A stretch of 57,152 nucleotides of DNA from Minisyncoccia bacterium (lineage in GTDB: Bacteria > Patescibacteriota > Minisyncoccia > Phycocordibacterales > DATDWN01): the NCBI GenBank assembly GCA_049297675.1, contig JBAQUS010000006.1, positions 1 through 57,152 of the forward strand, in the 5' to 3' direction. This document shows, piece after piece, positions 2,631-55,475 of the stretch; position 1 is the first letter of the stretch, and each line of letters begins with the position of its first letter. The notes under the pieces were generated by a model, which searched no databases, had not been told where the DNA came from, and saw only the letters and a list, made by a program, of their open reading frames with translations. A program made the position numbers and the translations under genes.

Positions 2631-2667
<37 letters not shown>

Positions 2668-19227: not shown

Positions 19228-19670
19228 ACTTCTCCCAGACCAATCAACCACTTTTGGTGCCCTTTTTCTAGCATTCTTTTTATTAGTTTGGGAAAAAGTG
19301 ACGGAAACAAACCCCTCTGAACTTCCTCAGTAATGACTAATGTTCCTCCATTTTGAGGAATAAGTCTAAAGCCATGATAACCAGAAGCTAAAAACTCTTT
19401 GGCTGTCCAACCTAAACTTTCATTTTCCTTCCACTCAACAACTTTCGATTTTACATTTATGAAAAATGTCCGCCATTTAAATTCTTTTCCTAGAGAAAGA
19501 AAATCACTATCTATTTTAATACCCTGGCAGTTAGAATACCAAGTTGGCCAGTTTCTAGCTAAAACAAGTTTCTTCCAAACTATTTGTGGAGGTGATGGTA
19601 CAAAGAAAGAATTGTAAGATTGAACTGGATAGTCTTTTGGATCAATTCCCGCTGGCCAAAATATATTCAT
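19224..19670 (-). CDS. SRPBCC-superfamily (polyketide cyclase/START-like) protein
   Basis: 148 aa with a W-rich pattern typical of SRPBCC ligand-binding proteins. Weak assignment. Confidence 0.5.
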   Translation of the reverse strand: MNIFWPAGIDPKDYPVQSYNSFFVPSPPQIVWKKLVLARNWPTWYSNCQGIKIDSDFLSLGKEFKWRTFFINVKSKVVEWKENESLGWTAKEFLASGYHGFRLIPQNGGTLVITEEVQRGLFPSLFPKLIKRMLEKGHQKWLIGLGEV

Positions 19671-20714: not shown

Positions 20715-20829
20715 CCCGTTTAGAAACAGGTCGCGGTCTGGTAAGACCACTTCCCCGTCCCTATTATTAATTACTTATAACCTAACATATACCAATTAAT
20801 TTTCAAGCGACCGCGGTTTCTAACGGGAT
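20713..20829 (-). repeat. CCCGTTAGA-family element (117 nt) ending on the ssb start codon
   Basis: Reverse strand reads ATCCCGTTAGAAACCGCGGTCGC...GACCGCGACCTGTTTCTAAACGGGAT followed by G. It is flanked by ATGTAT on both sides. Same subfamily and same orientation relative to the gene as the recA copy. Confidence 0.85.
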
Positions 20830-22246: not shown

Positions 22247-23683
22247 TTAATCTTTACGAAGAAACAATGGTTTCTCAGGTACTTTATTGGATTTTATTAG
22301 TTCCTTAATTTTTTGGGAAGTCTCCGGAAGAATCGGGTTTAGCATTCTTGCTACAGAATATAGTTTAATAACCATCTCTGATATCATCTTCTGACCTTTT
22401 TCTTTTTCGAGTTTGACAACCTTAAATGGCTGATTTTCTTGTATAAAGAAGTCCATTTCACCAATTTTCTTCCAAACATAGTCAGTTGCCTTATTTATCT
22501 CAAAATTATTTAGAAATCCGAAATATTCTTCCATATTTTCAAATTCAGGAATTACAGCTGGTTTGTCTAAATTGTCACTTGCCATTTTCATTATTCGAGA
22601 AACCAGATTACCCAAACCATTGGCAAGTTTTGCATTATAAGCATCCTTAAACCTCTCTATGGTAAATGGACTATCTTCAAAATTTGATAGTTCAGCCAAG
22701 AGGAAATACCTGACTGCATCAGGGCCATATTCGCTAATAAGATCAACTGGATTTACAGTATTACCCAAAGACTTACTCATTTTTATTCCTCCTTCACCAG
22801 TAACGAACCCGTTTATTATTATGTGTTTAGTGTTAGGAAGATCTACAGCCATGAGCATGGCTTGCCACATAGCTGACTGTTGACGAAGATTGTCCTTTCC
22901 ACAATATTGAACAGTCTCCCCTTCTCTCCAAAATTTACTAAAATTACTTTCATCTTTTGGCCATCCTAAGGTAGAGATGTAATTTACCAAAGCATCAAAC
23001 CAAACATACATTACTTGACTATTATCATCTGGAACAGATATACCCCAGGACATTTTTTCCTTAAGACGAGATATGGAAAAATCCTCTAAACCGCTTTTAA
23101 CAAAAGTTTTTATTTCATTAAACCTAAAATCTGGAACCACGAAACCCGGATTTTCTTTATAGTATTTTAGAAGTTTTTCTTGAAAAGCAGAGAACTTAAA
23201 AAAATAATTCTCCTCTTCGATTAACTCAATCTCCCTGTTTGGATGAAGTAAACATTTCCCGTCCTCTAGTTCCGAATCGGTTTTTTCCAGTTCACATCCA
23301 ACACAATATTTTATTTTATAATTTTTCTTGTATATAAAACCGTTTTGTAAGCACCTCTTCCAGAATTCCTTGGCTGATTCTTCGTGATATGGATCTGTAG
23401 TTCTCATAAAATGCACTTCATCCAAAATACCAAGAGTAACTGGAAGTTCCCTAAATTTTCTAGCGTATTCATCAACATATTCTTTTACATTTTTCCCAAC
23501 CTCTTTTGCTCCTGTAAAAAGTTTCTGACCATGTTCGTCAGTCCCAGTGTTAAAAAAAACTTGGAAACCTTGAAGCTTCTTTGACCTTGCTATTGCATCT
23601 GCTCTGACAAGTTCCATAGCAAAACCGATGTGCGGTTCTGCATTTACGTACGGCAATGTAGTAGTGATATAGAAAGTCTTCAT
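22247..23683 (-). CDS. metG: methionyl-tRNA synthetase (short form)
   Basis: TTTLPYVNAEPHIGFA (HIGH region), a KMSKS motif and a CxxC-type zinc knuckle. Confidence 0.95.
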   Translation of the reverse strand: MKTFYITTTLPYVNAEPHIGFAMELVRADAIARSKKLQGFQVFFNTGTDEHGQKLFTGAKEVGKNVKEYVDEYARKFRELPVTLGILDEVHFMRTTDPYHEESAKEFWKRCLQNGFIYKKNYKIKYCVGCELEKTDSELEDGKCLLHPNREIELIEEENYFFKFSAFQEKLLKYYKENPGFVVPDFRFNEIKTFVKSGLEDFSISRLKEKMSWGISVPDDNSQVMYVWFDALVNYISTLGWPKDESNFSKFWREGETVQYCGKDNLRQQSAMWQAMLMAVDLPNTKHIIINGFVTGEGGIKMSKSLGNTVNPVDLISEYGPDAVRYFLLAELSNFEDSPFTIERFKDAYNAKLANGLGNLVSRIMKMASDNLDKPAVIPEFENMEEYFGFLNNFEINKATDYVWKKIGEMDFFIQENQPFKVVKLEKEKGQKMISEMVIKLYSVARMLNPILPETSQKIKELIKSNKVPEKPLFLRKD

Positions 23684-23690
23684 ATAAGTG

Positions 23691-23822
23691 CGACACTAAT
23701 CCACGAATTCATGCGAATGATACGAGGTTAGATACCCTTGACGAATGGGCATACAAATTTATTTGTAATATTCGTATGCAATTCGTATATTGGTATCGCT
23801 TCATATTCGTAATTCGTGTCGA
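23691..23822. repeat. ACGAAT-rich palindromic element (composite copy) 7 nt upstream of the metG start
   Basis: CGACACTAATCCACGAATTCATGCGAATGATACGAGGTTAGATACCCTTGACGAATGGGCATAC...ATTCGTATATTGGTATCG plus an extra arm ATTCGTAATTCGTGTCG. Confidence 0.8.
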
Positions 23823-24944: not shown

Positions 24945-26213
24945 TTAGAGTTTGAAAAGTTTTTTGATTTCTTCTTCGTTTTCTACATTCCCTACTATTG
25001 CCATATTCATATTTTTATTAACAAAAATTTGTTTAGCAAGCTTTTGAATATCTTTTGCTGTAATTTTTCTTATTTCCTTCTCTTTTTCCTCTGGAGTTTT
25101 TATCTTCTCCCCCATTACTTCTTGAAAACCGTAAAAATCAGCAAGGGAATCCGATGATTCAAGCCCAAGATACATCCTGCCTATTTTATAATCCTTTGCT
25201 TTTTTTAGTTCCTCCTCAGTAATTTTTATTTCTTTTATTTTTCTTATCTCGCCTAAAATACCTTCAATCGCCATTCCAAGCCGATTTTTATCAACACCAG
25301 CAGGTATTCTAAAATTACCATGGTCTGTAAGCCCACTATAGCTTGAACCGATGTAATAGCAGATACCAAGTTCTTCTCTCATTTTCTGCCACAAACGCGA
25401 GCTCATCCCGACACCTAGGATGGTAGAAAGAAGACTTAGAACCCTTGCTCGTTTATCATGAAGATCAAATGCTCTAAATCCTATAATTAGATGCAACTGA
25501 TCAGTGTTTTTATGTTTAATCCTGATTTCCGGTTTTTCTTGCTTCTCTGAAAACTTACTTTTTCTGACTGTTTTTCCGGTGGAAATATTTTTGAAAGCTT
25601 TCTCAATTTTTTTAAAAGCTTCATCTATCTTTAGATCACCTGATGCAACAATAGTTGTTTTGCTAGCAACATAATGCTTTTTCCTGTACTGAAAAAAGTC
25701 TTCTTGCTTCATACTTTTAATATTTTCTTTTGGACCCAAAACTGTCCATCCGTATGGAGTATCACCATACATGAGCTCCTGAAAAACCTCATGAGAAATA
25801 ACTTGTGGTAAATCCTCATACATGTTTATTTCCTCAGTTATTACCCCTTTTTCCTTCTCCATTTCCGCCTTAGGAAATGTTGGATTTAAATACATATCAG
25901 AAATAATGTCTAATATCTTTTCAAAATTATTATTTGAGGCTTTAGCGTAATAAGAGGTGATTTCATTTGAGGTGAAGGCATTGTTTTCTGCACCCATACC
26001 ATCAAACTCCTTAGCAATATCCATAGCAGTAGGTCTGTTTTTGGTACCTTTAAAAAACATATGCTCTAGAAAATGTGAGACTCCGTTTTTCTCCTTTGTC
26101 TCATACTCCGAACCAGTCTCAATTATAGACATGACTGTAACGGAGGGTGCACCTTTTATGGGAACAACGATTATCCTTAGACCATTTTTAAGTGTTTTCT
26201 TTTGATATGTCAT
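24945..26213 (-). CDS. M16-family (pitrilysin-like) zinc peptidase
   Basis: 422 aa with the inverted zinc motif HFLEHMFFKGT. Confidence 0.85.
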   Translation of the reverse strand: MTYQKKTLKNGLRIIVVPIKGAPSVTVMSIIETGSEYETKEKNGVSHFLEHMFFKGTKNRPTAMDIAKEFDGMGAENNAFTSNEITSYYAKASNNNFEKILDIISDMYLNPTFPKAEMEKEKGVITEEINMYEDLPQVISHEVFQELMYGDTPYGWTVLGPKENIKSMKQEDFFQYRKKHYVASKTTIVASGDLKIDEAFKKIEKAFKNISTGKTVRKSKFSEKQEKPEIRIKHKNTDQLHLIIGFRAFDLHDKRARVLSLLSTILGVGMSSRLWQKMREELGICYYIGSSYSGLTDHGNFRIPAGVDKNRLGMAIEGILGEIRKIKEIKITEEELKKAKDYKIGRMYLGLESSDSLADFYGFQEVMGEKIKTPEEKEKEIRKITAKDIQKLAKQIFVNKNMNMAIVGNVENEEEIKKLFKL

Positions 26214-26214
26214 T

Positions 26215-26252
26215 GCGATACGAATATACGAATCATGCGAATGATACGAATT
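26215..26252. repeat. ACGAAT-rich element, half copy, abutting the M16 peptidase start codon
   Basis: GCGATACGAATATACGAATCATGCGAATGATACGAATT. On the reverse strand GTATCGCA is followed directly by the ATG. Confidence 0.75.
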
Positions 26253-27639: not shown

Positions 27640-29550
27640 TTACTGTTTAACTATATTATCTCCGGATTTAAAATTTGGATCTGAATATTGAGTGTCAACT
27701 TGTTCAAACGTCCCGCTAATTTCCGTTTCAGTATACATGTCTATGGCTGTTGCTGTTGATTTTGTGATGAGGGCAGGAGAAGCACCGATCTGATTTATAC
27801 TAGGTACAATTCCAACCTTGAAAGAAACTTCTTTAGCTGAATTTGAAAAACCAACTCCTGCAGAAATGTTTCCGATTTTCCATTTAACTACTCTGGTATC
27901 TGGATCATATGTCACTCTCTCTGAAGTGGGCGATATTTCTCCTTTCCATAATACTCCCACAGGAAGTGTTGTCACTACTTCAGCATCTTTTAAGTTGTTA
28001 GTTGTATTTGTAACTGTCCAGTTAATGCTATAGGTACTCTCCTTATCGGCCTGTGGAGGTATCGGACCAGTGTTTGTAAATGGTCCAATACTTCGAAGTG
28101 ATTTTGAAACAAGCGTTAAGGTTGATTGGATTTTAATTTGTAAATCTGCAGAAGAGCTTACTTCTGAGGAATCCTCATCAGACCTTGCTCCAGTCATAGT
28201 TACATGCACATCTATATAAGGATTCCTGAGTGCCCTGACAATTTGCGGATCAGTGAGCGATAATAGAGAAACTGAAACCTGTCCCTCAGCACCAGGCATG
28301 AGCTGTATCAATTCTTTAACAGCATTCTTATCCCAATTGACCATATTATTTATCGATTCGTAAAAACCAAGATTGCCAACACTTACTTTGTTTCTATCGA
28401 AAATATTTCCGGAAATCACTGCTTCGATTTTGGCATTGATTATTTTGTCTGGTAAAGTGTTGTACCATTTGATTGTCACTGGAATATACTCACCTACCCT
28501 TTTTACTGAATCGTCAGATGTCGTAACTTTTAGATCAAAGAAAGATTTTCTAATACCGACAGTTATTGATGACTCTACCAAATCTGAGTTTGTGACTTGA
28601 GAGAAACCTTGAGTTCCAGCTGATATTCTAAACGACCTATCCTCCATATTTTGACCAACCAAAACTCCTATAACAGTTAGAGTGGTTTTTTCTCCATCTT
28701 TTAAGTCCCCTATATTCCAAACAGAATTATCACTTGTCGGCTTTATACTTGAACTTTTGTATGTAAAACCAAATGGATACTCTATTTTTACTTGAGAATT
28801 TCTAATCGTTACTGGAGAATTTGAAGTGAGATCTACGTTTATCTTCATTTCCTGTCCTGAATTTACTTCCTTTGGATAATCAATCTCCATTAGTATTGGT
28901 GATGAACCTATAGAAACATCCACGGTTTTCTCTTTTAGGAGAGTAGCGTTTGAACCCTTAACTTTATACTCCAAATTTAATATAAAAGTTTTTATCGTGT
29001 CTTTCTCACCAAAAAGAAGTGCCCTAACGGAGTGATCCTTGCTTTCCCCTTTAGGGATACTTCCAAGTTCTATCCTGTCATGCGTCAATGATCTACTACT
29101 GGAATTAACATCTTGAGAACCAACTGGATAATCTATAGCTAAAGCTACATCTTCTAAATCAGTTCGATTACCGTTGGTAATGTTAAGTTGCATAAGATAT
29201 TCCTCACCGGACGATACTGAACTTGGGGAGATTACTTTAATATCAACATTGCTAGAGGAAATCAGATTTATTCCTCCAAAGAAAACAAAAACGGCAACAG
29301 TAAGAGAAATTATAAAAAGAATAAGAGAAATTATAAGGAACTTATTAAAAAATGAATTGTTTTTCTTGGCCACTTCGTCATATCTTAAATCGAACGATTT
29401 TGGCCCCCCCCAATTGTTTTGTACTTCAGATTCATAATGGGGCATATGACTCCTCTCATCCTTAGGAACCATGGACTCGTTGCGAGAATAAAGTGCTCTT
29501 TTTAGTCTCTCTATTCTACTATTTTCAAAATTACTATCTTCGGGGCTCAT
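27640..29550 (-). CDS. hypothetical membrane-anchored extracellular protein with repeated beta-sandwich-like modules
   Basis: 636 aa with one TM helix near residue 70-95 and a repetitive beta-rich ectodomain. Confidence 0.55.
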   Translation of the reverse strand: MSPEDSNFENSRIERLKRALYSRNESMVPKDERSHMPHYESEVQNNWGGPKSFDLRYDEVAKKNNSFFNKFLIISLILFIISLTVAVFVFFGGINLISSSNVDIKVISPSSVSSGEEYLMQLNITNGNRTDLEDVALAIDYPVGSQDVNSSSRSLTHDRIELGSIPKGESKDHSVRALLFGEKDTIKTFILNLEYKVKGSNATLLKEKTVDVSIGSSPILMEIDYPKEVNSGQEMKINVDLTSNSPVTIRNSQVKIEYPFGFTYKSSSIKPTSDNSVWNIGDLKDGEKTTLTVIGVLVGQNMEDRSFRISAGTQGFSQVTNSDLVESSITVGIRKSFFDLKVTTSDDSVKRVGEYIPVTIKWYNTLPDKIINAKIEAVISGNIFDRNKVSVGNLGFYESINNMVNWDKNAVKELIQLMPGAEGQVSVSLLSLTDPQIVRALRNPYIDVHVTMTGARSDEDSSEVSSSADLQIKIQSTLTLVSKSLRSIGPFTNTGPIPPQADKESTYSINWTVTNTTNNLKDAEVVTTLPVGVLWKGEISPTSERVTYDPDTRVVKWKIGNISAGVGFSNSAKEVSFKVGIVPSINQIGASPALITKSTATAIDMYTETEISGTFEQVDTQYSDPNFKSGDNIVKQ

Positions 29551-34134: not shown

Positions 34135-35856
34135 TTACATTTTTTCTGGAACTTTAATAGCAAGAAGACTTAGCCCATCAGTCATAACCTGAGCAAAAGC
34201 CTTAGTTATGTAAAGCTTGTAAGACGATACTGGATCATTTTCGTCTATTATTTTCCCACTTGCATAAAAACTATTAAACTCCCCGGCTAACTCTGTCAAA
34301 TATGTCACTAAGTAGTGTGGAGCATATTCCCTACCCGCTTTCTCTACCACAGAGAAAAATCTCTCTAAATATCTCTCCAGATTTGTTGTCTTCCAATTCT
34401 CAGGTACTTCGGCTACTGCCTCAGTATCTCCAGCACCATTAGTGCTTTCGACTTTTTTCAAAATTGAATTTGCGCGAACTGCAGAATACTGAAGATACGG
34501 TCCGGAGTCACCCTCAAATGAAATAGACTTTTCAAAATCAAAGACAATGTCTCCTCCTATAGCCTGACGAAGTATTGAGTACTTTATTGCACCTATCGCC
34601 ACAATCTCTGCCAACTCCTCAATGTCAAGGGTGCCCCTTGGCATTTCGTCCCTATTTTTCATCTTATCTAAAACTTTGGTTTTTACTTGATCAATTAAAT
34701 CTTCTGCAGAAATGATTGTGCCTGTTCGAGATGACATTTTTCCACTTGGAAGTTTTAGAATACCATGAGAGAGATGATGGAGCTTCCTTTTAAGTTCTGG
34801 AAACACTTCTCCAATAGCTACTTCGACTACCTTGAAAAATGAATCCTGTTCATTTGCTGTAACTGTTATCGATTTGTCATAGTCAAACCAATCTTTCTTT
34901 ATTTGAGCCAAGCCTAACTCTTTTGCCTCGTATGTCGGCAATCCTTCGGAGTTCAGAAATACTCTTGTATGAGTTTTTGGCTCAAAATTCTCACCTTTAA
35001 AAATTATTGGCACTCTTTTTATCCCGTTAGAAACAGACTCTTCCTTAGAGTCGCCGTTTCGCACGGGATCGCCCTTTTCAAAAATACGACCAATATTTTC
35101 TCTGACTAATTCCTGCCCGATTTCGCCACTTTCACTTTCAAAAAAATGGAAGTCGAAATGACTATCAAGTCTTTTATAAAGAGCCTCAAAACCCTCAAGT
35201 GATTTTTGCCTACCATCTTCGTAAATCTCACTAATTTCTGGATCTGATTCCTCGTATATTTTTTTATTGATTTCTAGTATTTCAACTTTAGCTTTCTCAT
35301 TTTCCTCGAACTCTTTATAACCAAAAGCATAAGCTACCTCTAAATTCTTGCCTGCTTTTATTGCCCAAACTGCCATAGCAATGTGAAGACCAACATCTCC
35401 GTGATACGAGGCTACTTGTATTTCTGCACCATTTGCTTTTAGAATTCTCGAAACAGATTCTCCAATGCAGTTACCCATAAGATGTCCTATATGAAATTCT
35501 TTAAATGGATTCGGTTGTGAGTGCTCAAAAAATATCTTTTGGCCCTTAAAAATTTTTCCTTCAAATTTCTTACCTATTTCATCCTTAAAATAATTTGCAT
35601 CAAAAAAGAAGTTCAAAAATCCCGGTCTAGCTATATTTATAGCCGTTTGTGGAAGACGGTCTTCCACAAATTGGGATTTTATATTTTCGGCGAGGTCGAG
35701 GGGTTTTTTACCAAGCTCTTTTGCATACACCATGGCAACATTTGTTGAATAATCCCCCATTTCAATATGAGTTGGATAATCCAAAACAACCTTAGGATCT
35801 TTTACTCCTGACTCTTTTAGAATTTCAATTATTTTTTGTATTATTTCTTCTTTCAT
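34135..35856 (-). CDS. argS: arginyl-tRNA synthetase
   Basis: SQPNPFKEFHIGHL (HIGH) and a C-terminal DALR anticodon-binding region. The start is placed at MKEEIIQ, abutting the repeat element. The gene contains an in-frame 49-nt repeat copy. Confidence 0.95.
   Translation of the reverse strand: MKEEIIQKIIEILKESGVKDPKVVLDYPTHIEMGDYSTNVAMVYAKELGKKPLDLAENIKSQFVEDRLPQTAINIARPGFLNFFFDANYFKDEIGKKFEGKIFKGQKIFFEHSQPNPFKEFHIGHLMGNCIGESVSRILKANGAEIQVASYHGDVGLHIAMAVWAIKAGKNLEVAYAFGYKEFEENEKAKVEILEINKKIYEESDPEISEIYEDGRQKSLEGFEALYKRLDSHFDFHFFESESGEIGQELVRENIGRIFEKGDPVRNGDSKEESVSNGIKRVPIIFKGENFEPKTHTRVFLNSEGLPTYEAKELGLAQIKKDWFDYDKSITVTANEQDSFFKVVEVAIGEVFPELKRKLHHLSHGILKLPSGKMSSRTGTIISAEDLIDQVKTKVLDKMKNRDEMPRGTLDIEELAEIVAIGAIKYSILRQAIGGDIVFDFEKSISFEGDSGPYLQYSAVRANSILKKVESTNGAGDTEAVAEVPENWKTTNLERYLERFFSVVEKAGREYAPHYLVTYLTELAGEFNSFYASGKIIDENDPVSSYKLYITKAFAQVMTDGLSLLAIKVPEKM
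35031..35079. repeat. CCCGTTAGA-family mini element (49 nt) in frame inside argS
   Basis: ATCCCGTTAGAAACAGACTCTTCCTTAGAGTCGCCGTTTCGCACGGGAT is translated as DPVRNGDSKEESVSNGI. Same architecture as the spacer copy at 3450-3497. Confidence 0.75.
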
Positions 35857-35973
35857 CCCGTTAGAGATAGGAAACATTAGTTTCCGTAATTAATTTGGCT
35901 ATATAATTTAAATTACTAATATTAAGAATATACATCTTTTTTTAAAAAACAACTGGGTGATCTCTAACGGGAT
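35855..35973 (-). repeat. CCCGTTAGA-family element (119 nt) ending on the argS start codon
   Basis: Reverse strand reads ATCCCGTTAGAGATCACC...AATTAATTACGGAAACTAATGTTTCCTATCTCTAACGGGAT followed by G, with ATGAA on both flanks. Confidence 0.85.
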
Positions 35974-35985: not shown

Positions 35986-36252
35986 TCATGGTGACCTGTA
36001 TATATCCTTGCGATAACCTATTGCAAATAATACTATCTCTTGATTCTGTAGACGAAAAATACCACGATATACACGCGTTATTCTAAAGGAAAAAACTTTA
36101 TCGTCTACAAAGCCTTTTAACTTTTTAGTATGGAGTTTCGAATCATACATATCTTTTATCAATAGTTTTTCTTGTGATATAAGTAAGATTTTATCTTTTT
36201 TGGACAAAGAACTAGAACTTTTTTTATAATTCTTTGTCTTAAGAAGAATCAT
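35986..36252 (-). CDS. RelE/ParE-family type II toxin
   Basis: 88 aa with KKLKGF...FSFRITRVYRGIF......VLFAIGYRKDIY, directly downstream of a small antitoxin-like ORF. Confidence 0.7.
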   Translation of the reverse strand: MILLKTKNYKKSSSSLSKKDKILLISQEKLLIKDMYDSKLHTKKLKGFVDDKVFSFRITRVYRGIFRLQNQEIVLFAIGYRKDIYRSP

Positions 36253-36256
36253 GAAT

Positions 36257-36484
36257 TTAAAATTCTTTTAGAGAAGACTTGTATGCAGAAAGGATTTCAT
36301 TTTTATTTACATAGATGTCTAAACTTTCAGTTGGTGTCTTAGATATAGTAATGCTTTGATTTATTACAAACTGACGCAGGGATGCATTCACCACGTCAGT
36401 CAAAGATAAACCCAACTCTTTTGCTAAACTTTGAGCCTGTCTTTTCAAATCCTTTTTAGTTTTGATTAAAAATGTTGTATCCAT
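36257..36484 (-). CDS. RelB/DinJ-family antitoxin
   Basis: 75 aa with an RHH-like N-terminus, IKTKKDLKRQAQSLAKELGLSLTDVVNASLRQFV. A 4-nt gap separates it from the toxin gene. Confidence 0.65.
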   Translation of the reverse strand: MDTTFLIKTKKDLKRQAQSLAKELGLSLTDVVNASLRQFVINQSITISKTPTESLDIYVNKNEILSAYKSSLKEF

Positions 36485-36932: not shown

Positions 36933-37280
36933 TTATCTATTGTCACCATCTCCTCTTAATACACCACGTTCTTTTCTTGAGTTTAATTTTTCCATATTTG
37001 CCTTAGCAACTTCTTCGAGACTAAGTCCCAGATCATGCGACAAAACAGCCAAATACCACATAACATCTCCTAGCTCAAGTTTTATTGACTCTTTTCTCTC
37101 ATCAGTTATTCCTCCATCACCATCATCACCTCGGAGCCATTTTTTGATTTTACCCATTACTTCTCCCACCTCATCACCTAATCCAAATGCTGGATAAATA
37201 ATATTGTACTTTGGTGGATTAACCCTAAGTGGAACAGCCCATTTTTGATATTCGTTTAATTGCATAATTTTTATTTTCAT
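36933..37280 (-). CDS. MazG-like all-alpha nucleoside triphosphate pyrophosphohydrolase
   Basis: 115 aa with GLGDEVGEV...KLELGDVMWYLAVLSHDLGLSLEEVAKANMEKLNSRKERG. Confidence 0.8.
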   Translation of the reverse strand: MKIKIMQLNEYQKWAVPLRVNPPKYNIIYPAFGLGDEVGEVMGKIKKWLRGDDGDGGITDERKESIKLELGDVMWYLAVLSHDLGLSLEEVAKANMEKLNSRKERGVLRGDGDNR

Positions 37281-37398
37281 CCCATTAGAGATAGGAAATC
37301 AAAGATTTCCGTAATTAATTGATAAATTTGTATATAACCACATTACTCTAGCATTATTACATGATCTCGAAAATGAATTTTTTGATCTCTAACGGGAT
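37279..37398 (-). repeat. CCCGTTAGA-family element (120 nt) between glyA and the mazG-like gene
   Basis: Reverse strand reads ATCCCGTTAGAGATCAAAAAA...AATTAATTACGGAAATCTTTGATTTCCTATCTCTAATGGGAT followed by G. The 5' repeat contains the glyA stop codon, and the 3' repeat supplies the AT of the mazG-like ATG. Confidence 0.85.
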
Positions 37399-38582
37399 AA
37401 ACTTCTTAAGATTTTATCAATCTTTCGAGCAATATTCACAAAATCTTTTTCCTTTTTTCCTCTGGTGGTTTCAGCCGGAGAGCCGAGCCGTATTCCAGAT
37501 GGATCCATTGATGAACGTTTCTCACCTGGAATGGTGTTTTTGTTTACGATTATGCCAGCTTTCTCAAGCCTATCACTAGCCTCTTTTCCGGAAATTCCCT
37601 TCGCATCCATCCAAGTATCGACCAAAATGAGATGGGAGTCAGTCCCACCAGATACCACTCGCCAGCCTAATCTGGATAACTCATTGGCAAGAGCTTTAGC
37701 ATTTTTGATTACCTGCTTGGCATATTTTTTAAAGGCAGGACTGTCGGCTTCTTTTAAAGCCACTGCCACAGCCGCTATTTGATTTAAATGTGGACCTCCC
37801 TGAAGTCCGGGAAAAACTGCTCTGTCTATTTTTTTAGCTATTTCTCTATTTGGTTCTCTCTCGTCAATTTTGGAGAATATCATGGCAGAGCGAGGACCAC
37901 GAAGTGTTTTATGAACTGTTGTTGTAACAACATCAGCATATTTGAAAGGACTGTCATATACTCCACCCGCAACCAAGCCTGCAAAGTGTGACATATCTAC
38001 CATAAGAATTGCCCTGCAAGAATCTGCAATTTCTCTGAATTTCTTGAAATCAACTTTTCTTGGATAAGCTGTAAAACCGCAAACAATAATATTCGGTTTC
38101 TCACTTTCTGCAATTTTTTTCAGTTCTGGATAATTTATTACTTCTGTTTTTGCATCAACTCCAAAAGGCACTTGTATCCAAGCTTTACCTGTCATTGAAA
38201 CTTTGAAACCGTGAGTTAAATGGCCCCCATCTTGCAAATTCATTCCCATAATTTTCCCGCCAAGCGGTACTAGCCCCAAATAAACTGCCAAATTTGCCGG
38301 GGAGCCAGAAAGTGGTTGAACATTTACATGCCACTTATCTTTTGAGAGTTTGAAAAGTTTAAGAGCCCGAGTTTTTGCGAGATTCTCAATTTTGTCGACA
38401 ATTTCGTTTCCACCGTAGTACCGGGCTCCCGGATACCCCTCTGCATATTTATTTGTCAGCTCCGACCCAAGTGCCTCTAAAACATCTTTTGATACAAAAT
38501 TTTCCGAGGCAATAAGATTTATGACACCTTTCTGTCTTTTTTTCTCCTCATCTATTAGTTTTTTGATTTCCTTGTCTTTCAT
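37389..38582 (-). CDS. glyA: serine hydroxymethyltransferase
   Basis: 397 aa with NLIASENFVS, the PLP-lysine context TTTVHKTLRGPR and GIRLGSPAETTRG. Confidence 0.95.
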   Translation of the reverse strand: MKDKEIKKLIDEEKKRQKGVINLIASENFVSKDVLEALGSELTNKYAEGYPGARYYGGNEIVDKIENLAKTRALKLFKLSKDKWHVNVQPLSGSPANLAVYLGLVPLGGKIMGMNLQDGGHLTHGFKVSMTGKAWIQVPFGVDAKTEVINYPELKKIAESEKPNIIVCGFTAYPRKVDFKKFREIADSCRAILMVDMSHFAGLVAGGVYDSPFKYADVVTTTVHKTLRGPRSAMIFSKIDEREPNREIAKKIDRAVFPGLQGGPHLNQIAAVAVALKEADSPAFKKYAKQVIKNAKALANELSRLGWRVVSGGTDSHLILVDTWMDAKGISGKEASDRLEKAGIIVNKNTIPGEKRSSMDPSGIRLGSPAETTRGKKEKDFVNIARKIDKILRSLSR

Positions 38583-38839
38583 CCCGTTAGAGATAGGAAA
38601 CCTCTCAAGCGATTCTTGAGATAACGTTTACCCATACCAGTTTTTAAATATATCTCTCTTATTCTAGCATCATGATCATCCAAGCATGCTTCATAATATA
38701 TCACTTCGAATGGTTTATCTCTTCTGGTAAAGGTTGATTTCCCTTCGTTATGTTGCTTGAGACGTTTCCGAAGGTCATTTGTACTACCTGTGTACAATCT
38801 ACCATTTTTCTTACTTTTTAATATGTAGGTGTATATCAT
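38579..38839 (-). CDS. GIY-YIG domain nuclease (small YhbQ/COG2827-like type)
   Basis: 86 aa with IYTYILKSKKNGRLYTGSTNDLRKRLKQHNEG...YYEA....A..RE..LK. The stop TGA overlaps the glyA ATG (ATGA). Confidence 0.85.
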   Translation of the reverse strand: MIYTYILKSKKNGRLYTGSTNDLRKRLKQHNEGKSTFTRRDKPFEVIYYEACLDDHDARIREIYLKTGMGKRYLKNRLRGFLSLTG

Positions 38840-38862
38840 AACAGTGTGATCTCTAACGGGAT
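38581..38862 (-). mobile_element. CCCGTTAGA-family element carrying a GIY-YIG nuclease ORF (candidate autonomous copy)
   Basis: Reverse strand reads ATCCCGTTAGAGATCACACTGTT-ATG...(ORF)...GGTTTCCTATCTCTAACGGGAT followed by G. The 14-nt terminal inverted repeats are identical to those of the ORF-less copies at argS and mazG. Confidence 0.75.
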
Positions 38863-42087: not shown

Positions 42088-42633
42088 TTAGGTTTTTTTG
42101 ACCTGTAAGAAGTCGAGCTCCACTGGTGTCTCTCTACCAAACATTGCAACTAGTACTTTTACCTTCCCTCTCTCTTCATCCACTTCTGAAACTTTGCCTT
42201 CCAAGTCTTTAAACGGTCCATCAATAATTTTGACTGCATCATTTATTGAAAGATCTATCTTATGCTTTACATCCCCAGCGTTCATCCTACTGAAAAGCTC
42301 ATCTATCTCTTTTTTGTCAATTGGCACCGGGTAAACACCAGAGCCGACAAAACCAGTGACACGAGGAGTATTTCTGACAACATACCAAGAGTCTTCCGTA
42401 ACTATCATGTCAACTAATATGTATCCAGGATAAATTTTCTCCTCCTCTTCAACCCTTTTTCCACCTTTTATTTTTATTTTCTTCTCAGTAGGAACTATGA
42501 CGTTGAAAATCTTGTCCTCCATTCCAAGAGATTCTATACGCTGTTTGAGATTACGCATAACAGCATTCTCGTACCCAGCGTATGTGTGAACGACATACCA
42601 ATTCCTTCCGCTTTGTATTTGTTGTTTAGACAT
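42088..42633 (-). CDS. nusG: transcription termination/antitermination factor NusG
   Basis: 181 aa with an NGN domain (WYVVHTYAGYENAV) and a KOW domain (VKIIDGPFKDLEGKVSEVDEERGKVKV). Confidence 0.95.
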   Translation of the reverse strand: MSKQQIQSGRNWYVVHTYAGYENAVMRNLKQRIESLGMEDKIFNVIVPTEKKIKIKGGKRVEEEEKIYPGYILVDMIVTEDSWYVVRNTPRVTGFVGSGVYPVPIDKKEIDELFSRMNAGDVKHKIDLSINDAVKIIDGPFKDLEGKVSEVDEERGKVKVLVAMFGRETPVELDFLQVKKT

Positions 42634-42642
42634 ATTTTATAT

Positions 42643-42751
42643 GATACCAATCTACGAATTTATGCGAATGAAACGAATGTTAGATACACTTAACGAATAG
42701 GGCATACGAATCCATTCGTATAATTCGTATGTAATTCGTATATTTGTATCG
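42643..42751. repeat. ACGAAT-rich palindromic element, full copy, between secE and nusG
   Basis: GATACCAATCTACGAATTTATGCGAATGAAACGAATGTTAGATACACTTAACGAATAGGGCATACGAAT...GTAATTCGTATATTTGTATCG. Near-identical to the reverse complement of the copy at 46095-46234. Confidence 0.85.
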
Positions 42752-42761
42752 CTAAATCTTA

Positions 42762-42941
42762 TTAAATAATAAATTTCTCCAAAACCAATTTCAAAAGATA
42801 ATCAAAAAAACCGAGATAAAAAGAAACGAAAACAGAAATGATAACAACAACCACAGTGAAAGCCATGGCCTGATTTCTTGTTGGCCAAGAAACATGCTTC
42901 AGCTCTCCTTGGGTGTCTTTGATGTATGATATAAGTGACAT
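42762..42941 (-). CDS. secE: preprotein translocase subunit SecE (59 aa)
   Basis: Manual translation gives MSLISYIKDTQGELKHVSWPTRNQAMAFTVVVVIISVFVSFYLGFFDYLLKLVLEKFII. It has the canonical ELK.V.WPTR motif and sits upstream of nusG. It falls below the ORF-track cutoff. Confidence 0.75.
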   Translation of the reverse strand: MSLISYIKDTQGELKHVSWPTRNQAMAFTVVVVIISVFVSFYLGFFDYLLKLVLEKFII

Positions 42942-42954
42942 AAATTTATTCTAT

Positions 42955-43052
42955 CACGACACCAATACACGAATGAAGACGAACGTACGAATGGGTTCAG
43001 AATTCTGAATTCAATTCGTGTCATTCGAGTATTTATTCGTAATTCGTGTCGC
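42955..43052. repeat. ACGAAT-family element (CACGAAT variant) upstream of secE
   Basis: CACGACACCAATACACGAATGAAGACGAACGTACGAATGGGTTCAGAATTCTGAATTCAATTCGTGTCATTCGAG...ATTCGTAATTCGTGTCG. Confidence 0.75.
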
Positions 43053-44662: not shown

Positions 44663-45205
44663 TTACATTCTGTTATAAACCTTTATAGTCCCGTATGAAA
44701 CCGTAATGCCCAGAACCACACCAAAAAGGACGTCTGAGAACCAGTGAGCGTTGAGATAAATTCGAGAATAACTAACTAGAAAAATAAGTGCTATGCACGA
44801 GAAATTAAATAATATTCTTTGAAACCTGCTTAAATGATCACTGAAAAGATACATGGTCATGATAAAAAAGATGGTCGCGATTGTAGCATGACCGCTAGGA
44901 AAACTCTTACCGAAAACTTCGACAGAACTCTCTGCCGGACGATTTACATCGAAAAACATTTTTAGTACAGAAACTATAATTGCTCCTGTAGTAAGTGTTG
45001 TAAAAAAAAGTAGAGCTCTTTTGAGACCACCGATAAGATAGAAAAGTAGAGTAAAGGCTACAACAACCAAAATAAAATGGATGGATAGATCAAATATTGT
45101 TGTAAGTAAGTAAAAAAACTCCGTCATACTCTCTGTACGACTTGTCGAAATATAGTTTTGAATGGCAAAGTCAATACTTAACATATTATATAAACCATCT
45201 TGCAA
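44663..45205 (-). CDS. PAP2-family phosphatase
   Basis: 180 aa with the PAP2 motifs KMFFDVNRP, PSGH and SRIYLNAHWFSDV. The true start may be the internal MLSIDF. Confidence 0.8.
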   Translation of the reverse strand: MQDGLYNMLSIDFAIQNYISTSRTESMTEFFYLLTTIFDLSIHFILVVVAFTLLFYLIGGLKRALLFFTTLTTGAIIVSVLKMFFDVNRPAESSVEVFGKSFPSGHATIATIFFIMTMYLFSDHLSRFQRILFNFSCIALIFLVSYSRIYLNAHWFSDVLFGVVLGITVSYGTIKVYNRM

Positions 45206-46067
45206 ATATTCCTGCGGTTAAAAGCCTATGGGTGTTTGTTTCCTTGATAGATAACTCTCCACACGCTGTCTTACCTCCTAAATCTTTTGTTAAATCCTCT
45301 AAAACTTGTTTGTAAGTCTCGGCAGAGTAGTTCGAAGCATAGCCGTTTAAAACTATTGCTATCGGATCTTTTGATAAAACACTTTTAACTCTTTTTAGAA
45401 AAGGCAAAAGATCATTTTCTATTTTCCATACTTCCTTTTTGACGCCCTTTCCATACACTGGAGGATCGAGAAGTATGACGTCGTACTTGTTTCCTCGCTT
45501 TATTTCTCTTTCAACAAACTTTCTAACATCATCCACAATAAACCTAACGGGTTTTTCCTCTAATCCGGAATCTTTTAAATTCTTTCTTGCCAGATCCACC
45601 GCAAATTTAGACGAGTCAATATGGTAGACCTCTGCCCCAGCCCTCGCGCAAGCCATCGTAGCCCCACCAGTGTACGCAAAAAGATTTAGAACTTTGATCC
45701 TATTCGTATTATTCGCATGAATTCGTATATTTGTATCGCGTTTAATCTTCCCCTCAAGCCACTTCCACTGCCCTACCTGTTCTGGAAAGACTCCGAGGTG
45801 TTTAGAGGGCAAAAGTGATACATTAAAAGTCAGTTCTTCTAAGGTTATTTGCCAATTTTCTAATGGCTTTAACCATTTACCAGAAGCACCCGAACGAACG
45901 TAAGTTGAATCAGCCCCTTCCCATTCTTTTTTGGAAAGTGACTTTGCCCACAAAACTTGTGGATCGGGTCTACGCAAAACATACTGTCCGTATCTCTCGA
46001 GCTTCTCTCCTTCTCCACTATCTAGCAGTTCGTAGTCTTTTGATTTTTCAGTTACTAGAATTTCCAT
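45186..46067 (-). CDS. class I SAM-dependent (RlmI/YccW-like) methyltransferase with in-frame repeat insertion
   Basis: 293 aa with VLNLFAYTGGATMACARAGAEVYHIDSS and ILLDPP. The 15 residues RDTNIRIHANNTNRI are encoded by an ACGAAT half element. Confidence 0.8.
   Translation of the reverse strand: MEILVTEKSKDYELLDSGEGEKLERYGQYVLRRPDPQVLWAKSLSKKEWEGADSTYVRSGASGKWLKPLENWQITLEELTFNVSLLPSKHLGVFPEQVGQWKWLEGKIKRDTNIRIHANNTNRIKVLNLFAYTGGATMACARAGAEVYHIDSSKFAVDLARKNLKDSGLEEKPVRFIVDDVRKFVEREIKRGNKYDVILLDPPVYGKGVKKEVWKIENDLLPFLKRVKSVLSKDPIAIVLNGYASNYSAETYKQVLEDLTKDLGGKTACGELSIKETNTHRLLTAGIFARWFI
45697..45740. repeat. ACGAAT-rich element, half copy, in frame inside the methyltransferase gene
   Basis: GATCCTATTCGTATTATTCGCATGAATTCGTATATTTGTATCGCG is the reverse complement of the arm consensus CGATAC.AATATACGAATTCATGCGAAT.ATACGAAT. 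Confidence 0.8.
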
Positions 46068-46094
46068 CTCAAAATTGTATCACAAAAATTTTTA

Positions 46095-46234
46095 GCGATA
46101 CGAATATACGAATGTCATACGAATACTACAAATGTAAATACACTTACGAAAAGTGCATGCTAATATTCGTATGCCCTATTCGTTAAGGGTATCTAACATT
46201 CGTATCATTCGCATAAATTCGTAGATTGGTATCG
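46095..46234. repeat. ACGAAT-rich palindromic element, full copy, upstream of the methyltransferase start
   Basis: GCGATACGAATATACGAATGTCATACGAAT...ATTCGTATGCCCTATTCGTTAAGGGTATCTAACATTCGTATCATTCGCATAAATTCGTAGATTGGTATCG. Confidence 0.85.
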
Positions 46235-46237
46235 TGA

Positions 46238-46762
46238 TTAAATACCACTTACTAAAAAAGAAACTTGTCTCTCCCTGTCGTGATCAAGTTCAACTAACAT
46301 AATCTCTTGCCATCTGCCTTTTAGAATTTTTCCCTCATTTACTATTAGTGTAACGCTGGGATGGATCATCAACGCCTGAGCATGAGCATGACCGTTTATG
46401 CACTCGTTTATCACCCCGTTTTCATCAGGTTCGCAAAGATGTGTGTTTCGCTTGCCGTTTTTATTTTCTGCATGAGCAATATCGTTATGTCCGTAATCAT
46501 GCATCGGATCGGCAAAATTATCCAAAACCTTTCTGAGATCTGATATGTACCCAAGTTCCTCTGATGGACCGATCAAATTTTTCTCATTTTCGTTAACCCA
46601 AATTCCACAGGTTGTATGATGACACTGTATCAAAATTGAACCCCTCTTTATTCCAGACTTTTTTATAACCTCTTCGACATCAGAAGTAATAGTAATGAAC
46701 TCCGCTCTAAAACGAGTTTGGTATTTTTTAGTTTCCAAATGTGTATGATATTCTCCTGTCAT
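46238..46762 (-). CDS. YjbQ/UPF0047-family protein
   Basis: 174 aa with ILIQCHHTTCGIWVNENE and NGHAHAQALMIHPSVTLIVNEGKILKGRWQEIMLVELD. Confidence 0.75.
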   Translation of the reverse strand: MTGEYHTHLETKKYQTRFRAEFITITSDVEEVIKKSGIKRGSILIQCHHTTCGIWVNENEKNLIGPSEELGYISDLRKVLDNFADPMHDYGHNDIAHAENKNGKRNTHLCEPDENGVINECINGHAHAQALMIHPSVTLIVNEGKILKGRWQEIMLVELDHDRERQVSFLVSGI

Positions 46763-47544
46763 CCTATATATATTCCTGTTGGGTTGGGAACTGTGGCTAG
46801 AGTGGCTCTTGGAAGCTCAAAAATATAAACTCCTGATTCATTTCTATAAAACTTTGCTTTGGACTCATCTCCCAAAACATTCTCAAAATCTTTGATTTGA
46901 TTGTTAAAATATTGACCAGAAAGATACCTAATCTCACCTCTGGAAAACAACTTATTTTTGTCTTCCAAAAACTTTGCCATCGATGGATGAGTTGTGCCAT
47001 CACCCTCTACTATGTCACACAAATCCGCATGAGCCCTGCCGGCAACAACGAGAGTTGGACTTGATTCAGAAGTATGTCCAATAATCTCTTCTGCCATGAC
47101 TTCATCCCTTTTATTCCAACTATCTCTATCATCAAAAAAGAAAAAAGAATTAACTAAACCTTCGTCTTTTAGTTTTTTCATTAAACTAAAATATCCGGCG
47201 GTTATTCTGCCATCTGAACTATTCATTATCGAACCAAAATCCAAAACGCTGTCACTTTGAAAAAGCTGAGTTACTCTGGTCATGCTTTTATCCCACTCTA
47301 TTCCAAGTTTTTTGAACTTAAATTTTTTTATTAAAGTATAAACAATACTCGGATTCTCCTTGACCCCATGCATTTCGCCTAAGGCAAAAACCTTACCTGC
47401 AACAATATCATCAATAAGCATGTTGACTGCTTCTGCGTCAAAATCTGTTGGGACTTCAAAAACAGATTCCTTTATGGCTGTTTCAAAATCTTTCTTTTCC
47501 TTATCAAGATTACGCTCTTCCCCACCCGAAGTATTTTCAGTCAT
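46759..47544 (-). CDS. hypothetical protein (possible ChaN/Tiki-like fold)
   Basis: 261 aa with GEMHG...LGIEWD...VVAGRAHADL. Weak resemblance only. Confidence 0.45.
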   Translation of the reverse strand: MTENTSGGEERNLDKEKKDFETAIKESVFEVPTDFDAEAVNMLIDDIVAGKVFALGEMHGVKENPSIVYTLIKKFKFKKLGIEWDKSMTRVTQLFQSDSVLDFGSIMNSSDGRITAGYFSLMKKLKDEGLVNSFFFFDDRDSWNKRDEVMAEEIIGHTSESSPTLVVAGRAHADLCDIVEGDGTTHPSMAKFLEDKNKLFSRGEIRYLSGQYFNNQIKDFENVLGDESKAKFYRNESGVYIFELPRATLATVPNPTGIYIG

Positions 47545-53262: not shown

Positions 53263-54912
53263 TCACACTTGTATCGAGAAATTATAAGAAGTTACAATTT
53301 CTCTATCAAGTATGCTCTCGTAGCTCAATGGATAGAGTAGAGCTCTTCTAAGGCTTTGATGTTGGTTCGATTCCAACCGAGAGCACAAAATAGGACTTCG
53401 GTCAGTTTCAGAAAAAGAAATCGGGGAAATCACGGCGGATTCGTTTTGCCGAACGGCAAAACGGGCAAGGGTGGTCTGGGCGAATTCGTATTCTGGTTTC
53501 CAAATCCAAGAGGGGGATTTTTCGGAAATGAGGCGGTTCGTTCCAATTTTTTGAACAAACTCCGATATCTCTCCAAGAGATTCCGCAGAAGCAATTTTTT
53601 CCGCTTGAGTTAAGGTTTTTATGTATTCTCTGGCTGGTTCGATCCAGCTACTGACATGCTTCCGCAGAAGCGACTCCTTTTCATTTTTGAGAGATATTTT
53701 TTGCTCGACAAACTGACTCTTTTTCGTGCGATATGTGTCCTCATCAATCAAATTGTCTAAATAACCACTGACCAGTTTGTCGAGCTTTTCATCTATCAAA
53801 AATATTTTCTTTGAGATCGCTTCTGCAGAAACATTAGCTGACTTAGTTTCTTTCTTTTCTTCAATATCGAGCATGGTATGTAATTCACGTGTCCAATTAG
53901 CCGGTAAAGCGATCGTCAGCGATTTTTCTATGATTTTCCTTTTCAAATCATTTTCTTGCATATACTTCTCGCTACACTCTCCGTGCTTCCTTGTGCAACG
54001 ATAATATCTGTAAGTGCCACCATTACCATGTGTCCACTGTGCCGTAATCATCGAGCCACATGAACAATGGAATAATCCGACAAAAGGAAAATCATGTTTT
54101 GATTTGGTTTTGCGAGGTCTGCTTCTCTCTCGCAAAACTTCCGCAACTTTTGTAAATAATTGTTTTGTAATAAGTGGCTGGAATTTTCCTTCATACGCTT
54201 CACCATTCCACATCATCACGCCCATATATAATTCATTACAAAGAAAATGTTCAATGGCGAAATTAGATTTTGTTTTTCCATCGGTTAATTTAGCAAAATA
54301 TTCGGCGATACTGTTAAAGGTATGAGTTCCAGTGGCGTATTCGGCAAAAACCTTTTTAACAATTTTGGCTTCTCTCGGCTCTGGTACAATATTGCGAAGT
54401 CTGTGGTCGTAAATATATCCAAACGGTTTTTGTCCTGGCCATCCGCCCTGTCGAAGTTTGGCTCGATTGCCACGCTTCACATTCTCTGACAGATTGTCTA
54501 TGTAATATTTGGCATTTGATAATCCGATAGAGAGAAAGAATTTGCCAGACGGCGTATTATCAAAAGCAAAAGTGGGAAATTTCAAATCAGCTAGTTTGCC
54601 AGTGTCTAGTAGATAAATCAAACGCCCACCATCTACTGAATTACGAGACAATCTGTCTGGGTTCCACGAAAGAATACCAAACTGATGAGGAAGACCAGCA
54701 TCTAATTTGTTGAGCATGGTGTTAAATACTTCACGACCAGGAACTTTGGCTGTTTTCTTTTCAATAAAAGTTTCCACAATTTCAATATGCTCACGCTCGG
54801 CAAATTCTTTCAGCTCGGTGTGTTGCGATTCCAAACTCAAAACTTGGCGATCTTCCTCATCAGTGGATTTGCGAATGTAGAGAAAATATTTTAGTGGTGT
54901 TTGATTGTTCAT
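53263..54912 (-). CDS. large serine recombinase (phage-integrase/transposase type)
   Basis: 549-aa ORF with the N-terminal resolvase catalytic domain (YIRKSTDEEDRQVLSLESQ...NPDRLSRN), a recombinase domain and a Cys-rich zinc ribbon (CSCGSMI...YYRCTRK...C). The last ~40 codons read antisense through tRNA-Arg, so the functional C-terminus is uncertain. Confidence 0.9.
   Translation of the reverse strand: MNNQTPLKYFLYIRKSTDEEDRQVLSLESQHTELKEFAEREHIEIVETFIEKKTAKVPGREVFNTMLNKLDAGLPHQFGILSWNPDRLSRNSVDGGRLIYLLDTGKLADLKFPTFAFDNTPSGKFFLSIGLSNAKYYIDNLSENVKRGNRAKLRQGGWPGQKPFGYIYDHRLRNIVPEPREAKIVKKVFAEYATGTHTFNSIAEYFAKLTDGKTKSNFAIEHFLCNELYMGVMMWNGEAYEGKFQPLITKQLFTKVAEVLRERSRPRKTKSKHDFPFVGLFHCSCGSMITAQWTHGNGGTYRYYRCTRKHGECSEKYMQENDLKRKIIEKSLTIALPANWTRELHTMLDIEEKKETKSANVSAEAISKKIFLIDEKLDKLVSGYLDNLIDEDTYRTKKSQFVEQKISLKNEKESLLRKHVSSWIEPAREYIKTLTQAEKIASAESLGEISEFVQKIGTNRLISEKSPSWIWKPEYEFAQTTLARFAVRQNESAVISPISFSETDRSPILCSRLESNQHQSLRRALLYPLSYESILDREIVTSYNFSIQV
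53314..53385 (+). tRNA. tRNA-Arg (TCT)
   Basis: GCTCTCGTAGCTCAATGGATAGAGTAGAGCTCTTCTAAGGCTTTGATGTTGGTTCGATTCCAACCGAGAGCA folds as a cloverleaf with anticodon loop CTTCTAA. The last 6 nt lie inside the left 162-bp inverted repeat. Confidence 0.9.
53380..53541. repeat. left arm of 162-bp inverted repeat (includes the recombinase 3' coding end and the last 6 nt of tRNA-Arg)
   Basis: Reverse complement of 55000-55161 with about 5 mismatches and no indels seen. Confidence 0.9.
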
Positions 54913-54999
54913 GGCGATAGGATTTTAATTAGTATAGCAAAAACTGCTTCTTCAAAAAATTGGAAACAAAACTTATTTTTGTAATTTGCTTTACAAATG

Positions 55000-55161
55000 A
55001 CGAACCGCCTCATTTCCGAAAAATCCCCCTTTTGGATTTGGAAGCCAGAATTTGAATTCGCCCAGACCACCCTTGCCCGTTTTGCCGTTCGGCAAAACGA
55101 ATCCGCCGTGATTTCCCCGATTTCTTTTTCTGAAACTGACCGAAGTCCTATTTTGTGCTCT
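55000..55161. repeat. right arm of 162-bp inverted repeat, upstream of the recombinase gene
   Basis: ACGAACCGCCTCATTTCCGAAAAATCCCCC...CCTATTTTGTGCTCT. It encodes a near-copy of the recombinase C-terminal ~54 residues on the plus strand. Confidence 0.9.
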
Positions 55162-55431: not shown

Positions 55432-55475
55432 AAAAAGACCCCGTGCAGAGATCGTACATTTCTGCACGGGGTCTC
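55432..55475 (-). terminator. rho-independent terminator of the G+C-rich membrane protein gene
   Basis: Reverse strand reads GAGACCCCGTGCAGAAATG...CTCTGCACGGGGTC followed by TTTTT. Confidence 0.7.

Follow-up and report, generated by a model that had tools for sequence, protein, structure and literature searches.

The Ssn family comprises single-domain GIY-YIG proteins of about 94 amino acids (CDD cd10448) that bind a hairpin repeat (NTS/SRM) and cut single-stranded DNA (ssDNA) just 5' of this repeat (Chenal et al. 2025, PMC11893778). Ssn genes are flanked by the repeat, which is itself dispersed in hundreds of copies, and SsnA still cuts when the two halves of the stem are located on separate strands (PMC11893778). 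The authors regarded this layout as insertion-sequence-like and compared it with IS200/IS605 and with repetitive extragenic palindromes and their associated tyrosine transposases (REP/RAYT); domestication was favoured, no mobility was shown, and genomes of the Candidate Phyla Radiation (CPR), start codons, duplications and empty sites find no mention (PMC11893778). Nuclease/hairpin-repeat systems are, thus, known since 2025; mobility and the targeting of start codons have not been described previously. Here, we are discussing a stretch of 57,152 nucleotides from a Minisyncoccia bacterium (assembly GCA_049297675.1, contig JBAQUS010000006.1; the same sequence is present in assembly GCA_049296155.1), referred to as the window, in which a small GIY-YIG gene lies between inverted repeats at the start codon of glyA. 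On balance, we consider it probable that we are dealing with a compact element of CPR/Patescibacteria that is mobile at the level of DNA, measures about 280 bp, consists of one single-domain GIY-YIG gene between 14-bp inverted repeats and is accompanied by derivatives of 45–125 bp devoid of an open reading frame (ORF). We regard it as an Ssn-like nuclease/stem system in a transposon-like form that targets start codons. Literature searches that combined GIY-YIG with miniature inverted-repeat transposable elements (MITEs), YhbQ, Patescibacteria, start codon, transposase or terminal repeats retrieved no description of the element. According to a first-pass annotation of this DNA, no role has been assigned to small stand-alone GIY-YIG proteins; this statement, together with the novelty it implied, is outdated given the characterisation of the Ssn family (PMC11893778).

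Like the Ssn systems, the element codes for a GIY-YIG domain protein of about 90 amino acids without an extra domain, its gene is flanked on both sides by a cognate inverted-repeat motif that is also dispersed in the genome, and there are many nuclease/repeat pairs, each with its own sequence. The outer end of the stem reads AT(T)CCC in all three cases compared, namely ATTCCCGCG in Neisseria, ATCCCTGTG in Sinorhizobium and ATCCCGTTAG in the CPR element, and the tolerance of SsnA for a split stem, together with its cut just 5' of it, fits CPR arms that are 20–260 nt apart. There are, however, differences. While each Ssn flank is a self-contained hairpin of 20–50 nt, the two CPR flanks are the halves of one long-range repeat, which overlaps with the coding sequence; furthermore, the CPR elements are placed exactly on start codons, are accompanied by duplications of 3–6 bp, face empty orthologous sites, and contain an ORF whose stop codon, and in many cases also its start codon, is supplied by the target. 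The SRM consensus HGTCWY..YYVSBRH..WNVSBRG..RNCYNB yielded no match in the window and four in 592 kb of related CPR loci, which is a weak negative because the pattern also misses obvious NTS-like hairpins flanking the Sinorhizobium homologue. When compared by hhalign with that hairpin-flanked homologue, the CPR profile reached 97% probability and 41% identity over 66 columns, with UPF0213 scoring about as well.

On the minus strand, positions 38862 to 38581 read ATCCCGTTAGAGAT-CACACTGTT-ATG...(86 amino acids)...GGTTTCCT-ATCTCTAACGGGAT-GA, in which CACACTGTT has a length of 9 nt. This ORF-bearing unit measures 282 bp, and its 14-nt ends, recognised by sequence reading and motif scan as the 5' arm ATCCCGTTAGAGAT (38849–38862) and the 3' arm ATCTCTAACGGGAT (38581–38594), are perfect inverted repeats of each other. 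The ORF occupies 38839–38579 on the minus strand, stop included; its final codons are contained in the 3' arm, the closing AT of which provides the first two bases of the ATG of glyA (gene 38582–37389), and its stop TGA overlaps with this ATG as ATGA (38579–38582). Direct reading of the sequence, thus, bears out the earlier description of an ORF between perfect 14-nt repeats with a TGA overlapping the glyA ATG. According to the ORF list, Pfam and a structure model, the protein is a predicted single-domain GIY-YIG nuclease, with GIY-YIG as the sole domain (PF01541, E=1e-18, residues 1–68 of 86). Matches to ATCTCTAACGGGAT with at most two mismatches occur 13 times in the window, compared to 0.35 expected and with none of 100 shuffles reaching 13; the match at 14105, within coding sequence, is due to chance.

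The arms travel with the gene across genomes. A homologue search returned 1423 clusters from many Paceibacteria lineages, nearly all of them of 86 or 95 amino acids and 65–86% identical, and a scan of one genome per species revealed at least 573 nuclease loci in representative genomes. The arms were inspected in a sample of 80 loci retrieved from representative genomes, containing about 75 homologous genes, some 68–74 of which are bracketed by complementary arms; hence, GIY-YIG paralogues elsewhere do carry these termini. Arm variants come in matched pairs, such as GTACGAAAT/ATTTCGTAC, GTTAAAGA/TCTTTAAC and GAATT/AATTC, and the inverted repeat is sharply 14 bp long, almost purely Watson-Crick-paired and free of a G.U excess on the sense strand. 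Translation of the arms explains the common terminal sequences of the homologues, which are FLSLTG at the end and/or MNPVRD at the start: in 26 of 27 inspected entries the C-terminus (..SLTG, ..TLTG or ..SQTG) is the translated 3' arm, the exception being one truncated entry of 83 amino acids, and the gene calls of 95 amino acids begin with MNPVRD, corresponding to ATG-A followed by ATCCCGTTAGAGAT. Some nuclease entries carry even longer spurious N-termini. One nuclease sub-family reads the arm in another frame, with the arm's own TAA serving as its stop; since the arm is kept whichever frame is read, conservation acts on the DNA and not on the protein.

A further arm sub-family is of the type CCCCG...CGGGG. 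Elements of this type were seen at ten loci (L042, L046, L057, L059, L067, L068, L070, L073, L075 and L077), the contigs of which are binned as Planctomycetota, Omnitrophota, Syntrophales, Bdellovibrionales, Desulfacyla and Scalinduaceae, and those at L042 and L046, although binned to different phyla, are 100% identical and agree in their flanks, which points either to mis-binning or to a spread beyond CPR.

Counting complementary arm pairs of the type CCCGT...ACGGG in 1.41 Mb of sequence (the window and related loci) gave 106 elements, versus two in reversed-sequence controls. They fall into size classes of about 270 nt and of 26–127 nt, with terminal inverted repeats common to the ORF-bearing and the ORF-less copies. 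The short copies amount to 3.9 per 100 kb in nuclease-anchored loci versus 0.3 in glyA-anchored controls.

The boundary model that best fits these sequences takes the element as N-CCCG...CGGG-N' and its putative target as T(G/A)A(A). In 61% of the elements, the flanks contain an exact direct repeat of at least 3 nt, versus 20 ± 3% in permuted pairs, with a modal length of 4 and a range of 3–6 nt. The duplicated strings are mainly TGAA (25), TGA (9) and TAA (5), but also TGAG, TCAA, TGCAA, TGGA, TGTA, TGAC and CTCTAA, and where the right flank differs from ATGAA, it is repeated on the left in 12 of 13 cases. The terminal A (or G) of the element together with the duplicated TG restores the start codon of the host gene, which is ATG or, at L130, GTG. 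At the other side of the overlap, the nuclease ORF does not possess a stop of its own and ends on the duplicated TGA or TAA, usually as an ATGA stop/start overlap; in 44 of 63 elements the stop is the first triplet after the element (TGA in 32, TAA in nine and TAG in three), which implies that the stop codon is supplied by the target. A duplication of 4 bp at ATGAA leaves the old ATG in frame with the nuclease, resulting in the MNPVRD... form of 95 amino acids, and at operon-internal sites the TAA of the upstream gene constitutes the left copy of the duplication.

Host genes and orthologous sites add to this picture. The genes directly 3' of elements represent 88 Pfam families in 53 proteins, including SecA, topoisomerase I, CTP synthase, SMC, RRF and FtsW, and an ORF of at least 200 amino acids begins within 8 nt downstream of 53% of the long copies, compared to 3.5% of random positions. 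The first-pass annotation had named short sequences that are fixed leaders without empty sites as the finding that would speak for a regulatory RNA; this is contradicted by the glyA start, which is empty in 35 of 35 relatives (two of them with tmk-glyA synteny retained), by the argS start, which is empty in 18 of 18, and by an argS-internal copy, an in-frame insertion of about 18 residues that is absent from 17 of 17 orthologues. The loci L033 and L055, which are syntenic at about 82% nucleotide identity, have two element sites in common: at the first, L033 contains a long and L055 a short copy, at the second the situation is reversed, and the arm variants differ. At L103 and L130, two other GIY-YIG sub-families (47–52% identity) with quite different arms are located exactly on the glyA start. 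Paralogues at different genes of the same genome are mutual best matches, with 89% nucleotide identity versus a median of 75%, and tandem insertions into the regenerated site are present at L032, L009 and L044. Flanking duplications, unrelated host genes and turnover at orthologous sites point to mobility, and the element family is real and probably mobile; that the nuclease itself drives this mobility is an inference. The architecture of autonomous and non-autonomous copies proposed beforehand is, accordingly, supported by the arms on paralogues, the empty orthologous sites, the flanking duplications, the unrelated hosts and the turnover.

Motif scanning, complemented by alignment and the ORF list, places the ORF-less copies of the window as follows. 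Two copies on the minus strand match the ORF-bearing copy over about 24 nt at their 5' ends and 22 nt at their 3' ends: one of 119 nt (35855–35973) that ends on the argS ATG and has ATGAA duplicated on both flanks, and one of 120 nt (37279–37398) that ends on the mazG ATG, has one mismatch in its 3' arm (TAATGGG) and contains in its 5' arm a TAG that is the stop codon of glyA. A second sub-family, characterised by an extra A in the 3' arm, comprises a copy of 122 nt on the plus strand (16270–16391) that ends on the recA ATG with ATGAA duplicated, and one of 117 nt on the minus strand (20713–20829) that ends on the ssb ATG with ATGTAT duplicated. Arms beginning with GTCCCG are found in a copy of 102 nt on the plus strand (18549–18650), ending on the efp ATG, and in one of 103 nt on the minus strand (5603–5705), ending on the ATG of ORF 5604–5032, which has no Pfam match. 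Two mini copies, both on the minus strand, complete the set: a 48-nt hairpin upstream of the 23S ribosomal RNA (rRNA) gene (3450–3497), and the 49-nt in-frame copy inside the argS coding sequence, recognised by motif scan and orthologue comparison. All of these had been listed before and are present; the argS-internal copy, assigned to 35031–35079, is in fact located at 35021–35069. Exact ending on the ATG of the downstream gene applies to seven of the nine window copies. Every window copy folds into a stable hairpin closed by the arms, with RNA z-scores of -3.2 to -6.5, and in a folding calculation the arms also close the predicted ssDNA fold. A promoter scan of the short copies yielded no internal promoter in excess of what shuffled sequences would give. 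For the recA and ssb copies, the idea of an SOS/LexA operator was dropped because the same architecture was found at unrelated genes.

The catalytic residues of the nuclease are invariant among homologues, and the ORF is under purifying selection, with a median ratio of nonsynonymous to synonymous substitution rates (dN/dS) of 0.15. The AlphaFold model is that of a confident GIY-YIG fold (predicted local distance difference test, pLDDT, 88), with UPF0213, Slx1, I-TevI and UvrC as the nearest structures; the sole stretch of low confidence is the arm-encoded tail, consistent with the arm being conserved as DNA and not as protein. In NCBIfam and PADLOC, the nuclease obtained weak generic GIY-YIG matches only, and tblastn against plasmids returned four distant matches.

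By analogy with SsnA, whose cut in ssDNA lies a few nucleotides 5' of the bound stem, the two arms would pair in ssDNA, and the encoded nuclease would nick beside the stem, within the flanking target bases; excision and insertion might then be completed by host repair or ligation, and ORF-less copies could be mobilised in trans. By landing on a start codon in this genome, which is poor in Shine-Dalgarno sequences and largely leaderless, the element would borrow the promoter and the start codon of the host, while the host gene would stay translatable. Genes of the window (G+C content about 37%) are almost without Shine-Dalgarno sequence, and many have a TATAAT-like box 6–8 nt before the ATG (e.g., 19224–19670, 27640–29550, 46759–47544 and 36257–36484), which implies mostly leaderless mRNAs. 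Taken further, the element, with its size of about 280 bp, could be smaller than any other autonomous DNA transposon known and of a new mechanistic class, with a single-domain GIY-YIG ssDNA nuclease as the only encoded protein. It would target the TGA(A) of ATGA(A) starts, take the promoter and start of the host, borrow its stop from the duplicated target and rebuild the start of the host gene; this stronger claim is put forward tentatively, and we would not yet bet on it.

Several other classes of elements invite comparison. Pairs of MITEs and autonomous transposons likewise consist of one coding and many short non-coding copies with common terminal inverted repeats, with flanking duplications and with sites that are filled or empty depending on the genome. 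Unlike in these pairs, no DDE, HUH, serine or tyrosine enzyme is encoded, the sole protein of the CPR element being a hydrolytic GIY-YIG nuclease. In addition, the coding unit is as small as about 280 bp, and the length of the duplication varies. IS200/IS605 and REP/RAYT (REPIN) systems resemble it in having a small enzyme gene between hairpin-forming repeats that are scattered in the genome, with ssDNA as the likely substrate; however, their enzyme is of the HUH Y1 type with a covalent intermediate, while GIY-YIG is the only domain in the CPR element. Moreover, IS200/IS605 elements do not create a duplication and REPs are mostly found at the 3' ends of genes, unlike the CPR element. The Rickettsia palindromic elements are similar to the 49-nt argS copy in being short palindromes inserted in frame within protein-coding genes; to our knowledge, neither a start-codon preference nor an associated nuclease ORF has been described for them. 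Rickettsia is also among the SRM-rich genera (PMC11893778). The free-standing homing endonucleases I-TevI and the Seg proteins have the catalytic fold and the selfish lifestyle in common with the element, but they possess a separate DNA-binding domain and a long specific target in one gene, and they lack terminal repeats and short derivatives. The CPR nuclease, in contrast, has no second domain within its 86 amino acids, and its hosts span many Pfam families instead of one gene. From CPR rRNA genes, insertions have been reported that contain GIY-YIG ORFs but belong to neither the group I nor the group II introns (PMC11270868). Among the eight odd loci tested, at which the element is not followed by an ATG, none was located in rRNA, and Rfam detected no RNA family at the elements.

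Some of the data weigh against a mobile element driven by its nuclease. A clean duplication is absent in 39% of the elements, among them the long copy of the window itself and the mazG copy, which has TTTA on the left and TGAA on the right. The in-frame arrangement with 95 amino acids applies to 17 of 35 elements with a left ATG, and a -10 box at leaderless spacing precedes this ATG in 13 of the 35 (37%) versus 11% in the background; promoter capture is, hence, partial. Filled and empty sites differ between species only; no within-species polymorphism was found, with identical context in 7 of 7 contigs with an identical protein and in 24 of 24 contigs read for P0034, and recent activity of the element is, hence, not demonstrated. 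GIY-YIG enzymes hydrolyse DNA without a covalent intermediate; a GIY-YIG enzyme alone is, therefore, incapable of strand transfer, and insertion requires host functions. Finally, short copies at shared sites have arm variants unlike those of the long copy. In-place deletion of long copies was rejected at L033/L055, where both the arm variants and the interiors differ; the short copies at shared sites are, hence, not simple deletion products, and descent by simple deletion from a resident long copy does not always apply.

The stable placement of the nuclease within species and the strong purifying selection on it are also what would be expected of a domesticated Ssn-type system, in which nuclease and dispersed hairpin repeats serve the host, for instance by restricting or modulating incoming ssDNA in natural transformation or recombination, and in which the repeats have spread by recombination or another route instead of by nuclease-driven transposition. 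The precedent is Neisseria SsnA, the one relative that has been characterised, which cuts ssDNA at its repeat and modulates transformation, and for which a domesticated repeat-gene-repeat unit was proposed by the authors (PMC11893778). Its role at the level of the host is a further point against nuclease-driven transposition. A host function of this kind leaves unexplained the exact placement on start codons, the variable flanking duplications, the presence of several nuclease copies per genome at unrelated genes, the three different sub-families on the same glyA start and an ORF that needs the target for its stop codon, and we regard it as unlikely. Still less likely, in our opinion, is mobilisation of the inverted-repeat elements by an unrelated enzyme encoded elsewhere, with the GIY-YIG gene as a passenger or as a homing-type nuclease that converts ORF-less into ORF-bearing copies via cutting and repair copying. 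GIY-YIG enzymes are classic homing nucleases, and the mutual replacement of long and short copies with different arm variants at the same sites resembles cassette exchange between conserved arms. Yet the gene overlaps both arms and is without its own stop codon, a change of protein sub-family goes along with a change of arms, the loci read contain no recurrent transposase-like gene in the vicinity of the elements, and the arm homology of only 14–25 bp is very short for repair-templated copying. The position of copies directly upstream of start codons, together with their stable RNA hairpins, could finally be taken to indicate conserved 5' leader RNAs or regulatory hairpins of housekeeping genes, one of which contains the nuclease gene by chance. 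This explanation, to which we attach hardly any weight, is already contradicted because the orthologous sites at glyA and argS are empty; it is also at odds with unrelated host genes, a copy within the argS coding sequence, strict Watson-Crick pairing and duplicated flanks, and Rfam detected no RNA family at the elements in the whole window, its group I introns being confined to the 23S gene. A group I intron or IStron is likewise not indicated, as Rfam finds no ribozyme core at the elements.

The window contains further repeats and genes of note. The two group I introns are adjacent (190–431 and 442–679) in the 23S rRNA gene (1–3289). ATTCGTA/TACGAAT units, e.g., GATACCAATCTACGAATTCATACGAAT, abound in a second, unrelated repeat family, which is found at 135–181, 1690–1782, 6951–7097, 23682–23812, 26201–26233, 42633–42766, 42948–43007, 45701–45749 and 46084–46263; several copies are located directly upstream of the ATGs of 6475–6972, 22247–23683, 24945–26213, 42088–42633 and 45186–46067, and the repeats may represent arrays of promoters or operators. 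A different element, about 135 nt in length, is present in two copies, one inside the region called 23S rRNA (2880–3015) and the other just upstream (3542–3678), with 26-nt inverted ends ACCCCCGAACTAACTTTGCCATCGTT / AACAATGGCAAAGTTAGTTCGGGGGT that are 96% complementary; its ACCCCC...GGGGGT ends recall the arms of the L130 element. A gene for a large serine recombinase of 549 amino acids (53263–55161 region) adjoins tRNA-Arg (53314–53386) and is located between, partly overlapping, 162-nt inverted repeats (53380–53541 / 55000–55161) that are 98% complementary; this region could be an integrated or invertible element. The 31-nt hairpin CCCGTGCAGAGATC..CATTTCTGCACGGG at 55440–55470, followed by a T run on the minus strand, is probably an intrinsic terminator and not a member of the element family. 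Between the nucleoside deoxyribosyltransferase gene and argS, a gene pair (35986–36484; 75 and 88 amino acids, no Pfam match) looks like a toxin-antitoxin module; its 88-amino-acid gene is not called in the otherwise identical locus L001.

The element accounts for the very common annotation "GIY-YIG nuclease family protein" in CPR genomes as well as for spurious N-terminal extensions, which arise when gene callers run ORFs through the arms, as in the 95-amino-acid forms and in the argS ORF (34135–35877), which gains MFPISNG. If the nuclease drives mobility, GIY-YIG would be added to the few enzyme classes by which prokaryotic DNA elements are moved, and the insertion-sequence likeness of the Ssn systems noted in 2025 could be tested on an element whose ends, target and duplication are defined. 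Paired nuclease/stem specificities could, furthermore, enlarge the ssDNA tool set proposed for Ssn enzymes. For the host, the rebuilt ATG, the borrowed stop and reading from the host start amount to an unusually economical limitation of harm by a selfish element in compact, Shine-Dalgarno-poor genomes.

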